64,000 nucleotides of DNA from a virus, in the IMG/VR virus record IMGVR_UViG_3300046652_000008, positions 1 to 64,000 of that record, one strand, 5' to 3'. Positions 22,612 to 26,872 of the stretch are shown here, one piece after another. A program made the translations under genes and the position numbers. The notes under the pieces are model-generated. The model was given only the letters and a program-made list of their open reading frames with translations, was not told where the DNA came from and ran no database searches. Every line of letters begins with the position of its first letter. The stretch's first letter is position 1.

Positions 22612-23079
22612 CTACCTACCGGACGAACCAAATCCGCCATCGCCGCGTTCAGTCTTGTCTAACTCTTGGACAACGCTGAACTTAACTGGTGTATACTGTG
22701 AAAATACTAGCTGTGCAACCCTATCGCCAATCTGCACATCATATGGGTTCCGCCCAACGTTCACTAGGATAACTCCGACCTCTCCACGATAGCCAGGATC
22801 AATCGTTCCAGGGCTGTTAGCCACGATGATACCCTTCGTTGCCATACCGCTCCGCGTGCGTATCTGCGCTTCCACTGGAGCACTGAACGACAGCACTAGG
22901 CCCGTCTTGACCACCTGAACCTCTGACGGGTTAATGTGGACGTTCTCCACCGCGTACAGGTCACAACCTGCATCGTCCTCATGCGCGTACATCGGTAGTT
23001 TGGCTAACTTATGCACTAGCTTAACGCCTACCGTCTCGATTAATGCCGTTTCTTCGTTTTTCTTCATTACCATCCCCAT
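22612..23079 (-). CDS. dut: Trimeric dUTPase
   Basis: DAGCDLY, RSG, GTIDPGYRGEV, DRVAQL, RGDGGFGSSG. Confidence 0.97.
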   Translation of the reverse strand: MGMVMKKNEETALIETVGVKLVHKLAKLPMYAHEDDAGCDLYAVENVHINPSEVQVVKTGLVLSFSAPVEAQIRTRSGMATKGIIVANSPGTIDPGYRGEVGVILVNVGRNPYDVQIGDRVAQLVFSQYTPVKFSVVQELDKTERGDGGFGSSGR

Positions 23080-23396
23080 CCTTCTTCAATTACTTGAAGT
23101 TTATCCCATTGCAGTTCGGCCCAATCTTCGTTTAGCTGAGTCTGCCTATCCGTCCACTCCCTGTAGTCTTTCGGTAGCTCTGGTTTCGGCGGAATTATAA
23201 CCCCGTACATCTTGAATATGATCCCGTCTATGTCCAAGCCATCCTTTGCTAGCGTTCCAGCCATCCCGCCACGATCAATGTCCGTATCTTCGTAGGGCGC
23301 TGCTAGCGCATCCAGTAACTCTCGTGTCAACACTCCAGCATCGTAAACCGCAAGTACCGATGCTTCAAAACTACTGAACGCTGCATTGTTTCCCAT
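23067..23396 (-). CDS. Hypothetical protein
   Basis: 109-aa ORF with AAGGAG RBS. Confidence 0.7.
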   Translation of the reverse strand: MGNNAAFSSFEASVLAVYDAGVLTRELLDALAAPYEDTDIDRGGMAGTLAKDGLDIDGIIFKMYGVIIPPKPELPKDYREWTDRQTQLNEDWAELQWDKLQVIEEGWGW

Positions 23397-23409
23397 GGCT
23401 TTATCTCCT

Positions 23410-24010
23410 TACCTCTCTATCCTAGCACGCTCATGCTGGTCCGTGTTGAGTAATAGTTCAACGTGCTGTTACATTCTCCATGTGGCATTCCATTTGCTAT
23501 CCGTGCGTGCTGGAATGGCCGGGAGCAACCTAGCAAGCACTCTGTTAACTGGCTTCTAAGCACTCGGTCCCTCGAATGACATTTATCCATTAGACCCGTC
23601 GAAGCGAGTACAAATACCTCAAGGGTTAGCTTGCGCATAAATCATTATGCGGAGAGGGTTTGCCAATCCAGGTTTGTCTCACAGGCAGCAGACGAGGGTA
23701 TCCCGTCAGTCCTGAGCGATGCCCTGCTTTTATCATGCACAGAGGCAATCAAACAATAGAAGATTCATGCGCGAATCGCACTTTTCGAGTGTAGTTTTTG
23801 TGGCCGCACTCGACCTCGTTCTCTATTGCCCTGTATCCACCGGAGGTTTGGTGCTGCTCCTAGCTTTACCCAAACCACGACTCACCGTTTTGTCCTCAAC
23901 CGCGTGCGGATAAAGGACGTAAGTAGTTCCCTCTGCCCTATCAGGGCTGTCAATGGATACAGACTCTCAATGAATTCGGACATGCATTACCCTTCTCGTC
24001 TCAGCCTAAA
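23410..24010 (-). ncRNA. Candidate large (~600 nt) multi-domain structured ncRNA, family unassigned
   Basis: Gap in otherwise contiguous genes; nested long-range helices 23988-24000/23691-23700 and 23954-23962/23831-23839 plus many hairpins. Confidence 0.7.
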
Positions 24011-24021
24011 ATCGTGTAAGT

Positions 24022-24225
24022 TTAACGCTCTGCTACTTTATATTTCTCGCAATACTTGTCAATAAAAGAATTACGATCTGCTATGTTTTTGTCTACAGTT
24101 TTCTTGAACTGTTTGGACAAACACCTGCCCAACTTGTTTCTAGGATCAATCCCGGTACTTCTTTGCTTGAAGTACACGTCGCCAGTGCTATTCTGTAGGC
24201 CCAACCGTTTGTCTAGGGTGCTCAT
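24022..24225 (-). CDS. Hypothetical basic protein
   Basis: ORF with GGAG RBS. Confidence 0.5.
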   Translation of the reverse strand: MSTLDKRLGLQNSTGDVYFKQRSTGIDPRNKLGRCLSKQFKKTVDKNIADRNSFIDKYCEKYKVAER

Positions 24226-24430
24226 GGGATGCTCCTGCTAAAGTTTTGGGTTTGTTCCACGAGTAGGACTGGCACATAGGACATCGTTTCGGTTCAAGTC
24301 GTATGTCACGTCTAAACCAAGAGTATCCGCAGCGTAAACAAGTCCTAGCAAATAGATCAAATCCCTCTCTATTTTTAGTATCGCACGATGTCACGTCGTA
24401 GTCAATGGGTTTTGAAAGATTATTTTCCAT
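24188..24430 (-). CDS. Small zinc-ribbon protein
   Basis: CLRCGYSW...PKRCPMCQSYSWNKP. Confidence 0.65.
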   Translation of the reverse strand: MENNLSKPIDYDVTSCDTKNREGFDLFARTCLRCGYSWFRRDIRLEPKRCPMCQSYSWNKPKTLAGASHEHPRQTVGPTE

Positions 24431-24638
24431 ATGCCACCATCGTAATGGGAATATCATGCTGTCTTACTGTCGCAAGAAACTTAAAACGCATTTTTTCCAT
24501 CTTGCACGTGTACTCAGCGTTTTCCGGTTTGGCTGGACTCGCCGCTATCGCCTTATGCGGACGCATCTTGATCCTAAATCTTCCCGGAGAGGGATGTTGC
24601 GAACGAGTCATAAATCGTTTGTCTGGCCCGTGTGCCAT
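24420..24638 (-). CDS. Hypothetical protein
   Basis: ORF directly after the upstream stop. Confidence 0.45.
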   Translation of the reverse strand: MAHGPDKRFMTRSQHPSPGRFRIKMRPHKAIAASPAKPENAEYTCKMEKMRFKFLATVRQHDIPITMVAYGK

Positions 24639-24639
24639 G

Positions 24640-24915
24640 TTACCCTTTCAGCATCTCCACTATTTTTGCCTGTAGCGTCTTATCGAGTTGGACAGTACCC
24701 AAGAGGAACAAGAAACACTGTTCTCGCTCCTCTAACGGCAGCAGCTTCGCCGTATTCACTAGGAAATTGATAGACGACGCAAGCTTGCCGCGCATGTCAT
24801 CGCAGATAAGCTCTTGTGCTTTTAGCTCGTATTGATAATGCTTATATCTGTTATAGAAGAATCCGGCAGCCGCGATAGCCGCCCAAACCGCGATTCCTAG
24901 GATTGTTTCTAGCAT
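24640..24915 (-). CDS. Membrane-anchored hypothetical protein
   Basis: N-terminal TM; AAGGA RBS. Confidence 0.65.
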   Translation of the reverse strand: MLETILGIAVWAAIAAAGFFYNRYKHYQYELKAQELICDDMRGKLASSINFLVNTAKLLPLEEREQCFLFLLGTVQLDKTLQAKIVEMLKG

Positions 24916-24927
24916 CTATTCCTTTTA

Positions 24928-24948
24928 TGGCACCAAGGCTCCGATTCG
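24928..24948 (-). pseudogene. 3' fragment (nt 56-76) of the interrupted tRNA-Trp(CCA)
   Basis: CGAAT CGGAG CCTTGGT G CCA pairs with the T-stem CTCCG and acceptor ATCAGGG of the 5' fragment at 25741-25795. Confidence 0.85.
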
Positions 24949-24951
24949 CGC

Positions 24952-25026
24952 TGGCACCGGAGGAGGGAATCGAACCCCCGTTTGAGGTTTTGGAGACCAC
25001 CGTAATGACCACTATACTACTCCGAT
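24952..25026 (-). tRNA. trnW: tRNA-Trp(CCA), intact replacement copy
   Basis: Acceptor ATCGGAG/CTCCGGT, loop CT-CCA-AA, T-arm GGGGG-TTCGATT-CCCTC, G73 and encoded CCA. Confidence 0.92.
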
Positions 25027-25028
25027 GA

Positions 25029-25697
25029 TTATATGATAGCATTTTTCTTCGGCCCCGGTTGCCACCCTCCAAAGAGTCCATCATCATACGCTTTTTTCAC
25101 GTATGCGCTTATAAAATCCCAGGCCATAATTGGCATAGCGCCCCTTATATAATTGCACCTGCGACAGCATGGAACCACGTTGTCAATGGTATGCCCAAGT
25201 GAGTTATCTATTCTATCAAGCCCCATCATCAGGGGAGAGCTATCGCCACAGTACTTGCACCCATTGATTATCATGTCAATAACCGACTGCTCGCTAATAT
25301 GCGGATCGCCAAAACCATGCTTTATGTCCCACGATTTGCAGTTTGTGACTATCCAGTAAGCCCTATGCGCCGGATTGGTCCTAGATATAGAATTTAGCCT
25401 TCTTTTCCTGTCTAGAGCCTCTTCATATATTCCATTTCGCCTGCTCGTCTCTAGGTCTCTAATAGATTCGCATTTCTTGCACATCGAACAGAAGTATTTC
25501 TTACCACACCGAGACCTAGTTTTGTGAAATTGGTCTGCCGTTTTTTCCTCAAAGCAAACAGAGCATTTGCGTATCGCCCTATTTTCCTTGTAATCAACAA
25601 CGGACGATATGCACTTACCTTTGTTTCTGTAGTAGTATTCCCTACGGTATCTTCTGTCGCGGTCTAACTTTGATTCTTTTATCCCTGTATCTTCCAT
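25029..25697 (-). CDS. HNH / His-Me finger homing endonuclease with N-terminal zinc finger
   Basis: CSVC...CSMCKKC; CKYCG...GLDRIDNSLGHTIDNVVPCCRRCN. Confidence 0.88.
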   Translation of the reverse strand: MEDTGIKESKLDRDRRYRREYYYRNKGKCISSVVDYKENRAIRKCSVCFEEKTADQFHKTRSRCGKKYFCSMCKKCESIRDLETSRRNGIYEEALDRKRRLNSISRTNPAHRAYWIVTNCKSWDIKHGFGDPHISEQSVIDMIINGCKYCGDSSPLMMGLDRIDNSLGHTIDNVVPCCRRCNYIRGAMPIMAWDFISAYVKKAYDDGLFGGWQPGPKKNAII

Positions 25698-25705
25698 CTA
25701 CTTTT

Positions 25706-25734
25706 AGTATTTCACATCCAAAGCAGCAAGTCAA
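25706..25734 (-). promoter_or_regulatory. Sigma70-type promoter for the HNH gene (near-leaderless)
   Basis: TTGACT-17 bp-AATACT, 8 nt upstream of the ATG and 6 nt inside the insertion boundary. Confidence 0.55.
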
Positions 25735-25740
25735 TAAGAC

Positions 25741-25795
25741 AACGGAGGTTCGCGGGTTTGGAGTCCGCAGTCCTGAACCACTAGACGACCCTGAT
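25741..25795 (-). pseudogene. 5' fragment (nt 1-55) of the interrupted tRNA-Trp(CCA)
   Basis: ATCAGGG TC GTCT AGTGGTTCA GGAC T GCGGA CTCCAAA CCCGC GAAC CTCCG TT, then breaks off. Confidence 0.85.
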
Positions 25796-25816
25796 AACTT
25801 AATCATAACACGAAAC

Positions 25817-25894
25817 TGGAGGGCATAATTCGGGTCGAACGGATATTGACGGCTCCACAGGCCGCCGCATTTAACCAGTTATGCTATACGCCCT
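25817..25894 (-). tRNA. trnH: tRNA-His(GUG)
   Basis: Acceptor GGGCGTA/TATGCCC, anticodon arm GCGGC-CTGTGGA-GCCGT, TTCGA T-loop, encoded CCA; A(-1):U73. Confidence 0.85.
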
Positions 25895-25899
25895 AAGCA

Positions 25900-25988
25900 T
25901 GGTGCCAGCAGATGGAGTTGAGCCATCGGGGAGGCTTAGCCTCAACGGGTTTACAGCCCGCCCCCGCCCACTACGGGACTATACTGGC
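25900..25988 (-). tRNA. trnY: tRNA-Tyr(GUA), long variable arm
   Basis: Acceptor GCCAGTA/TGCTGGC, arm GCGGG-CTGTAAA-CCCGT, variable stem GAGGC/GCCTC, A73 and CCA; T-loop CTCAACT. Confidence 0.85.
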
Positions 25989-25990
25989 AA

Positions 25991-26150
25991 AAGAGAGGGA
26001 GGCCGCATGAGTCGAACATGCTGTTCCTAGAAAACTGCTCCGGCTGCACATCCCATAAAATCTCGCGCATGGACCTTTTAATACTCGCTGTTCCGTAGAT
26101 GCCTAGCGTCTCTCTACCCTTATTGGCGCGTCTATTCGGGCAAGTCCACT
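25991..26150 (-). ncRNA. Candidate structured RNA ending in a tRNA/tmRNA-like T-arm
   Basis: GCATG-TTCGACT-CATGC-GGCCTCC near the 3' end; helices UGGACUU/AGGUCCA, AGAGAG/CUCUCU, GCAUC/GAUGU. Confidence 0.5.
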
Positions 26151-26158
26151 AACTAAGT

Positions 26159-26605
26159 TTACGCCTTCATGAACGCCTTAATTGCAAAAATAGCATCAAC
26201 AACGTCCTGGGTCAGCGGAACCACCGTATTTGACGGAGTAGATAAAGCGCAGAACGCAGGATTCGTCATGATATCAGTACAAAGCTCTAACCCTGCCGCC
26301 GTAACCTTATCTTTACTGAGGGGAACGGGAGCTGCCGGAATAACCGTCTTTCCAGGTGTTGGCGTTCCGCCTAAAACATTGGCCGTGAGTGCTTCCTGGA
26401 CACTGACAGTGTGGGTACTCCACGCTGGATATCCATCTAACCCACGAACAACGCAGTCATAGGTAAAACTAGGACCAGTGATATCCCCATACCCAATAAC
26501 CCAATTCTTTACGGGCATATCGTAGTTGAATTGTCCTGAAGCCGATACAGTTGGGAACTTATAAAAGTTCGACAACGGAACTGGAGAAATTACGGAATTT
26601 TTCAT
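26159..26605 (-). CDS. Hypothetical protein within the tRNA cluster
   Basis: GAAGGA RBS before MKNSV. Confidence 0.65.
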   Translation of the reverse strand: MKNSVISPVPLSNFYKFPTVSASGQFNYDMPVKNWVIGYGDITGPSFTYDCVVRGLDGYPAWSTHTVSVQEALTANVLGGTPTPGKTVIPAAPVPLSKDKVTAAGLELCTDIMTNPAFCALSTPSNTVVPLTQDVVDAIFAIKAFMKA

Positions 26606-26640
26606 CTTGTTTCCTTCAATCAACCAACATAAATCGTTAT

Positions 26641-26707
26641 TTGGGCGTGTTGAGATCGTCAACGTTTCACGGGTTCACCCGTGCGTCCTTTACTAGACGA
26701 ACGCCCC
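26641..26707 (-). ncRNA. tRNA-like cloverleaf lacking an anticodon loop and CCA (mimic or pseudogene)
   Basis: GGGCGT/ACGCCC acceptor, GTC/GAC D-arm, CACGGG-TGAA-CCCGTG, GTTGA-CGATC-TCAAC. Confidence 0.6.
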
Positions 26708-26785
26708 ATCCAGATGGCGGGATTTGAACCCGCGACCTACTCCCCTATTGGGGAGCTGCTCTACCAGACTGAGCTACGTCCAGAT
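26708..26785 (-). ncRNA. tRNA-like cloverleaf lacking a functional anticodon and CCA (mimic or pseudogene)
   Basis: Canonical TAGCTCAGTCTGGTAGAGC D-arm and GCGGG-TTCAAAT-CCCGC T-arm, but anticodon arm GCTCCCC-AATA-GGGGAGT. Confidence 0.7.
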
Positions 26786-26793
26786 GTTTATCA

Positions 26794-26872
26794 TGGCTCT
26801 CGGCCCAGGATTCGGACCTGGAACCAACACTTTAACAGAGTGCCGCTCTACCTGAATTTGAGCTAGCCGAGA
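26794..26872 (-). tRNA. trnN: tRNA-Asn(GUU)
   Basis: Acceptor TCTCGGC/GCCGAGA, arm GCACT-CTGTTAA-AGTGT, G73 and CCA; T-loop TCCGAAT. Confidence 0.9.

Follow-up and report, generated by a model that had tools for sequence, protein, structure and literature searches.

A candidate structured non-coding RNA gene of about 400 nt in a narrow lineage of peat and soil phages

We think it fairly likely that positions 23575-23995 (minus strand) of an uncultured phage genome encode a non-coding RNA, structured and about 400 nt long, that acts in trans in a narrow lineage of peat and soil phages. This core would probably be a new and very rare class of phage non-coding RNA, known from two sequences and matching no catalogued family. 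The window in which it lies, a stretch of 64,000 nt, corresponds to the initial 64 kb of a linear IMG/VR phage record of 94.9 kb, which is about 76% complete. A first-pass annotation of the window had proposed a large structured non-coding RNA of about 600 nt on the minus strand at 23410-24010. Sequence conservation, the lack of codon periodicity and the statistics of folding and covariation support a large structured RNA on that strand, but with a core of about 400 nt and not with the size of 600 nt.

Results

Genomic context

The IMG/VR contig belongs to a phage, as shown by the presence of terminase and portal genes, and no cultured phage has a terminase more than 24% identical to its own. 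Among the sequencing runs carrying window sequence, near-identical DNA is found in peat and soil metagenomes, and no RNA run is listed. All genes around the candidate RNA lie on the minus strand. Rfam and ARAGORN place a tRNA island at 24952-26872 (minus strand), which contains tRNA-Asn, an odd tRNA-like gene, tRNA-His and tRNA-Trp, together with an HNH endonuclease gene. ARAGORN reports the odd gene (26708-26784) as a tRNA but assigns it no anticodon (a 2-base 'at' loop); with the Rfam tRNA model it reaches 47.9 bits. The position "downstream of the tRNA cluster" given in the first-pass annotation holds loosely, but tRNA-Trp lies about 930 nt upstream of the gap that contains the RNA and four small ORFs stand between them.

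Closer to the candidate there is a Zn-ribbon ORF (CxxC...CPxC; 24188-24457, minus strand), and then a 67-aa ORF of uncertain status (24022-24225, minus strand), which is preceded by an AGGAG Shine-Dalgarno sequence. According to the list of open reading frames, 23397-24021 (minus strand) is free of ORFs. On the downstream side this gap is followed by a 109-aa ORF with a strong Shine-Dalgarno sequence (23067-23396, minus strand) and by a dUTPase gene (22612-23079, minus strand; PF00692, 3e-29; phrog_135).

We found one syntenic relative of the phage, reached through its terminase (85% identity). This contig, IMGVR_UViG_3300044470_000018 (hereafter L010), is syntenic with the window over at least 7 kb and stops short of any tRNA region. 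Downstream of its Zn-ribbon gene (243-437) come an ORF-free gap of 827 nt (438-1264) and, directly after the gap, the dUTPase gene (aligned with that of the window at 1300-1731). An ORF-free gap is thus present at the equivalent syntenic place in both phages, from the Zn-ribbon gene upstream (52% amino-acid identity) to the dUTPase gene, the downstream anchor (71%). The 67-aa ORF has no counterpart in L010, and the 109-aa ORF is absent from this place. Proteins 58-67% identical to the latter are encoded in phage and metagenome contigs with unrelated flanking genes (L002, L003, L005-L007). The eight loci reached through the 109-aa ORF have neither synteny nor a gap; because that gene is all they have in common, we consider it a mobile cassette.

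The L010 protein is the sole homologue of the Zn-ribbon protein among the matches listed in a search of 5.8 billion proteins. JGI labels this small protein 'Zn-ribbon and HTH transcriptional regulator', and its gene is directly upstream of the RNA in both phages.

Extent of the conserved core

The conserved structured core of about 420 nt (23575-23995, minus strand) aligns with L010 572-1030. Its conservation is a mosaic, in which stretches of 22 and 14 identical nt alternate with indel-rich divergent segments, one of them containing a 39-nt insertion in L010. The invariant blocks are GUAAUGCA.GUCC, UCCA.UGAC, CGCACGCG, UUGGGUAA.GC.AGG, the 22-nt UGCAUGAUAAAAGCAGGGCAUC, GAUACCCU and GAGACAAACCUGGA. 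Outside the core, identity with L010 falls to 36-45% and the sequences are not alignable.

On the 3' side, a spacer (23397-23574, minus strand) ends in AAGGAG, the Shine-Dalgarno sequence of the 109-aa ORF. It is 36-41% identical to L010, its alifold z ranges from -0.25 to +0.98 and its single-sequence z is +0.5. This spacer makes up most of what the first-pass annotation had read as the second of two RNA domains (about 23410-23575). The two-domain architecture fails, because that second domain is unconserved spacer, without conservation or structure; three other helices that had been assigned to it fall in the same unalignable sequence.

Core substitutions are distributed by codon phase as 46, 57 and 62, with no 3-nt periodicity (p = 0.33), whereas the five flanking coding alignments between window and L010 used as controls all give p < 1e-9. 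This bears on the possibility that the region is protein coding, as one or more small or decayed genes in a 73-aa frame, a 33-aa frame (MSEF...) or a 40-aa frame containing LCMIKAGH, which we regard as very unlikely. Frames of 33-73 aa are indeed present, GAAGGG stands 7 nt before the ATG of the 33-aa frame and the LCMIKAGH frame runs without a stop in both phages; however, amino-acid identity is confined to blocks that are identical in nucleotides, with no synonymous changes, and no Pfam or PHROG match was obtained. A search of 5.8 billion proteins gave no homologue of the LCMIKAGH frame, and the only database matches of the 73-aa frame are summed weak ones (30% identity) to a tandem-repeat protein. 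The latter frame, singled out beforehand as the place where conserved coding would speak against an RNA, lies in unalignable sequence, is absent from L010 and is not conserved as coding sequence. Recoding of TGA or TAG opened nothing convincing, and alternative genetic codes were discarded for the same reason.

Folding and covariation

Thermodynamics alone is insufficient for the RNA case, because the whole 601 nt proposed at first are no more stable than dinucleotide shuffles (z = -0.94) and their 5' 310 nt rank 30th among 1222 genome windows of the same size after composition correction (top 2.5%). Divided by part, the single-sequence z is -3.4 for these 5' 310 nt and -0.7 for the 3' 281 nt.

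The consensus fold of window and L010 gave a stronger signal. RNAalifold assigns the core -71.2 kcal/mol, against -35.3 ± 4.9 in 100 column shuffles that preserved the gap and conservation patterns. The corresponding z is -7.4 for the sense and -4.6 for the antisense strand; 15 coding control alignments of similar length, treated by the identical procedure, range from +1.4 to -2.7, and the spacers on both sides of the core are at about 0. Sliding windows locate the signal at 23973-23574. In the 478-column alignment, 26 of the 85 consensus pairs are doubly compensated, compared with 13.9 ± 3.2 in shuffles (none of 200 reaches 26) and 4-11 in the coding controls, a count to be read knowing that RNAalifold over-fits and over-counts covariation on two sequences, so that shuffles already yield 14 'compensated' pairs. 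By the general test for a structured non-coding RNA, then, the two sequences present a deep consensus fold, an excess of compensated pairs and no coding signal. Covariation of R-scape grade is out of reach, since there are two sequences in all.

Taken singly, the two cores also exceed their dinucleotide shuffles in stability (z = -2.9 in the window and -3.6 in L010), while the flanking spacers do not. The L010 antisense strand is more stable than the sense strand (z = -5.5 versus -3.6); it is the consensus fold and the orientation of the genes, therefore, that decide the strand call.

An alternative view of the same data is that there is no functional RNA here, the region being a fast-evolving spacer in which the conserved islands are DNA-level signals (promoters, operators, or recombination or cassette-insertion joints) and the fold is over-fitted on the only two sequences. 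We hold this to be improbable. The single-sequence structures do transfer poorly from one phage to the other, as changed pairs are kept in 32/74 cases (31 expected) and 35/74 cases (28 expected), and the 39 conserved stems of at least 5 bp are not above the 26 ± 8 of shuffles. The mosaic neighbourhood, with the 109-aa cassette and HNH genes, would suit such a spacer, as would a 10-nt direct repeat that brackets the whole gap of L010. Nevertheless, a consensus fold so far outside the 15 coding controls and the spacers, a number of doubly compensated pairs above that of 200/200 shuffles, the strand asymmetry of the alifold signal and the stability of both individual cores, in contrast to their flanks, are not what a spacer would be expected to give. 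Besides, invariant blocks of 22, 14 and 8 nt spread across 400 nt without repeats are rare for DNA-binding sites. No iterons were found, which makes a replication origin unlikely.

The repeat of L010, AACGATGGCA, is exact and lies at 436-445 and 1261-1270, where the Zn-ribbon gene stops and the dUTPase gene starts. Chance alone would give about 0.3 repeats of this kind, and this one could mark a cassette joint.

Consensus secondary structure

In the proposed fold, a short covarying helix, P1 (GAGAG/CUCUC, 23964-23968/23652-23656, minus strand), would close a junction of three domains, P2, P3 and P4, and two hairpins, P5 and P6, would follow it. Four of the five P1 pairs are doubly compensated, because L010 has AGGGU/ACCCU in anchored, gap-free columns.

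The P2 domain (23833-23960, minus strand) contains a 10-bp stem, GUAUCCAUUG/CGGUGGAUAC (23960-23951/23842-23833), closing a multi-way junction. This stem had been detected in the first-pass annotation as CUGUAUCCA/UGGAUACAG, and it is compensated in L010 as UUCUCCACUG/UGGUGGGGGG. Hairpin 1 of P2 (23894-23915, minus strand) carries the invariant CGCACGCG. Hairpin 2 (GGUUUGG/CCAAACC, 23845-23876, minus strand; GACUUGG/CCAAGUU in L010) carries the invariant UUGGGUAA.

P3 (23753-23829, minus strand) is the variable region and holds the 39-nt insertion of L010. Its 7-bp stem, GCAAUAG/CUAUUGU (23829-23823/23759-23753), encloses two small hairpins and becomes GUAUUAG/CUAAUAU in L010, with two double changes. 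P4 (23661-23747, minus strand) is the most conserved domain (82% identity by blastn) and includes the invariant UGCAUGAUAAAAGCAGGGCAUC, GAUACCCU and GAGACAAACCUGGA. In its hairpin ACGGG/CUCGU (GCAAG/CUUGU in L010), GAUACCCU forms the loop, with an invariant AUACC. The P5 hairpin, GCAUAA/UUAUGC (23635-23650, minus strand), is GUAUAA(G)/(C)UUAUAC in L010, a C-G to U-A change. The P6 hairpin, UUGUACUC/GGGUCUAA (23590-23613, minus strand), marks the 3' limit of conservation and is weakly supported, by one-sided changes only.

All the complementary segments listed in the first-pass annotation do occur on the minus strand where it had placed them, and the minimum free energy fold of the single 601-nt sequence forms most of its helices, including the closure GACGAG..GGGUA/UACCCUCGUC. 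The comparison with L010 sorts them. CUGUAUCCA/UGGAUACAG, GGUUUGG/CCAAACC and (C)GCAUAA/UUAUGC(G) are retained through compensatory changes, and GUCCU/AGGAC is retained too, but in a shifted register. GCCCU/AGGGC and UCGAGUG/CACUCGA are specific to the window; L010 has the 39-nt insertion and a different local hairpin there. The GACGAG..GGGUA/UACCCUCGUC helix, which was thought to close the molecule over 300 nt, is not conserved, the 5' GGGUA being absent from L010.

The invariant UACCC is more plausibly a hairpin loop, which could contact the P2-domain GGGUA, also invariant. The number of pseudoknot or kissing candidates, namely GGGUA/UACCC, GAGGG/CCCUC and AUCCA/UGGAU, is not above that of shuffles. 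Two palindromes, AUGCAU and CGCG, can be seen by eye in the invariant blocks.

In the sequencing runs a single variant is listed, at 23991: C>A, or G>U for the RNA. The site lies slightly upstream of the conserved core and within the 5' GGGUA of the first-pass closing helix. The variant comes from one low-depth 175-nt contig in each of two soil/other metagenome runs (X5 and X6) and, as too little for covariation, was excluded from the evidence.

Searches for homologues

Beyond the L010 contig, no further homologue was found in IMG/VR, JGI metagenomes, GTDB genomes or INPHARED. In the INPHARED phages, blastn at distant settings gave no match with either the window region or the L010 region. Exact and gapped motif scans of IMG/VR led to 36 other loci, all unrelated, and the only nhmmer match (L015) is the L010 contig itself. 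Covariance model R1, taken as evidence for the P4 domain, scores 120-123 bits with window and L010 only. A single covariance-model match elsewhere (L023) was discarded, as it lies inside a 331-aa ORF. The motif scan of the GTDB genomes returned two matches, neither of which matches R1.

Searches with the anchor proteins led to no locus through the 67-aa ORF and to the L010 contig only through the dUTPase. BLAST and covariance-model searches of whole records revealed no homologue in the terminase relatives of 42% identity (G005 and G006), nor in G001-G003, G007 and G008. The contigs of two intermediate terminase relatives, P0004 (50% identical) and P0005 (47%), were left out of the homologue search.

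Among more distant terminase relatives (P0052, P0066, P0077 and P0087), several proteins are 1000-1250 aa long and contain the intein/homing-endonuclease domains PF14528 and PF14890. The terminase of this phage group is therefore a recurrent intein target. The copy in the window is 730 aa long and intein-free.

Comparison with known RNA classes

We compared the region with the 4227 families of Rfam 15 by cmscan (E <= 10), using as inputs 23000-24500 and, with lax filters, 23560-24040 (481 nt) and L010 430-1270 (841 nt). No family, including ROOL, GOLLD, RNase P and introns, matched the RNA strand of window or L010, in agreement with the first-pass annotation, which could recognize no RNase P, tmRNA, group I or group II signature. 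A Pistol ribozyme match on the plus strand (23594-23657) was rejected: it scores 18.9 bits against a gathering threshold of 34.5 (E = 0.4-1.3), lies on the strand opposite to the RNA, has no equivalent in L010 and is probably due to chance.

It is nonetheless conceivable that the core represents one of the known classes (RNase P RNA, group I or II introns, tmRNA, ROOL or GOLLD) in a highly diverged form, given its place near a tRNA island, although we find this most improbable when the whole of Rfam 15 yields nothing at such a lax threshold. RNase P RNA deserves a closer comparison. The bacterial RNA is likewise associated with tRNA genes, measures 350-400 nt and has a multi-domain fold closed by long-range helices, and (A/U)GUCC and GACAAACCUGGA are faintly similar, by eye, to what we take to be the CR-I/CR-V elements of E. 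coli M1 RNA. However, there is no covariance-model match and, on inspection, the CR-I/CR-V P4 helix cannot form: the P4-like helix GUCC(R)/UGGA reaches 4-5 bp at most. The consensus fold pairs CCUG with the invariant CAGG rather than in such a helix, and the RNase P assignment was rejected. As for tmRNA, ARAGORN finds tRNAs only and there is no Rfam tmRNA match. Group I and II introns were also rejected, with no Rfam match and with flanking ORFs that are separate, complete genes; no host gene is interrupted, and relatives of the 109-aa ORF match it in full from residue 1.

Stable RNAs are known from phage tRNA regions. The species 1 and 2 RNAs of phage T4 are stable non-tRNA RNAs of unknown function, co-located and co-oriented with the phage tRNA genes; RNAs of this kind are about 100-140 nt long and are processed from a tRNA precursor. 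Our candidate, in contrast, is much longer and is separated from the nearest tRNA by four small ORFs.

ROOL and GOLLD are the nearest analogues in setting and general kind, while the candidate falls outside both families by their membership test. ROOL (Rumen-Originating, Ornate, Large; about 580 nt) is a large multi-junction phage RNA with no known protein partner or function. Similarly, the candidate belongs to a phage, has a tRNA island about 0.9 kb away (tRNA-Trp, His and Asn at 24952-26872, same strand) and shows several multi-way junctions and invariant loops. Unlike ROOL, it has no Rfam match, is shorter (about 400 nt), shows another helix layout and is represented by two sequences only. 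GOLLD is a phage and prophage RNA near or containing tRNAs, in which a conserved part stands beside a poorly conserved one. The candidate also consists of a conserved core followed by a variable extension, but it lacks a Rfam match and an embedded tRNA, is half the size, and its variable part shows no structure signal. Both ROOL and GOLLD are phage-encoded, often near tRNA islands, and of unknown function, and they self-assemble into RNA-only cages (bioRxiv 10.1101/2024.12.08.627333).

Discussion

According to the consensus fold and its setting, the RNA gene would stand between the Zn-ribbon gene and the dUTPase module, co-oriented with its neighbours, with the tRNA island about 0.9 kb upstream. 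A sigma70-like promoter candidate, TTGACA-16-TAAAGT, matches the consensus at 24035-24062 (minus strand), about 40 nt upstream of the core, and L010 has another, TTGCTA-17-TATACT (517-545), about 28 nt upstream of its own core; the two sequences differ, and about 1-2 such matches per region are expected by chance. The RNA would probably be made from its own sigma70-type promoter or be cut from an operon transcript.

The position of the core could also suggest a cis-acting leader, either a long structured 5' UTR or a processing or stability element of the mRNA that runs into the 109-aa ORF and the dUTPase gene. The core is co-oriented with these genes, dUTPase is the downstream anchor in both phages and no intrinsic terminator was found between core and downstream genes in window or L010. 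Still, we consider a leader unlikely. An unconserved and unstructured spacer of 180-235 nt separates the core from the next start codon, the window has the whole 109-aa gene (absent in L010) between core and dUTPase, and L010 has a second promoter-like site between them (1113-1140). These spacers, the inserted gene and the internal promoter candidate disfavour a tight coupling to the dUTPase operon. Moreover, a bacterial leader of 400 nt would be very long.

We favour a trans-acting RNA. By analogy with ROOL and GOLLD, for which such a mode of action has been proposed, it would probably serve as a compact scaffold or as a decoy, binding either itself or a macromolecule of host or phage. The invariant unpaired blocks UUGGGUAA, GAUACCCU, UGCAUGAUAAAAGCAGGGCAUC and GAGACAAACCUGGA, together with the 5' GUAAUGCA, are likely surfaces for tertiary contacts or binding. 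The Zn-ribbon protein may be a partner of the RNA.

It is tempting to go further and propose that the core founds a new class of large phage RNAs with an activity of its own, either as a self-assembling particle or as a ribozyme or decoy acting on tRNA or the translation machinery, but we rate this as a quite doubtful extension. In a particle, the GGGUA/UACCC loops and the palindromic AUGCAU and CGCG could make intra- or intermolecular kissing contacts. A ribozyme or decoy would possibly work with the orphan Zn-ribbon protein encoded upstream.

Few large folded RNAs without known function have been described in bacteria and phages (OLE, GOLLD, ROOL, HEARO and raiA), and each of them is structurally unusual. 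If the trans-acting RNA proposed here is real, it would add a further class, unrelated in sequence and again located beside a phage tRNA island, and would favour the view that phages routinely carry large functional RNAs. At 400 nt, it would also offer a compact object for structural work. Its weakness is its rarity, with two metagenomic sequences from an uncultured lineage whose nearest cultured terminase is about 24% identical.

A further feature of this part of the genome is its composition. Plus-strand GC skew, which is -0.2 to -0.3 at the minus-strand genes here, collapses to about 0 to -0.14 within 23450-25100, an interval that covers the RNA and also the small ORFs at 24022-24915.
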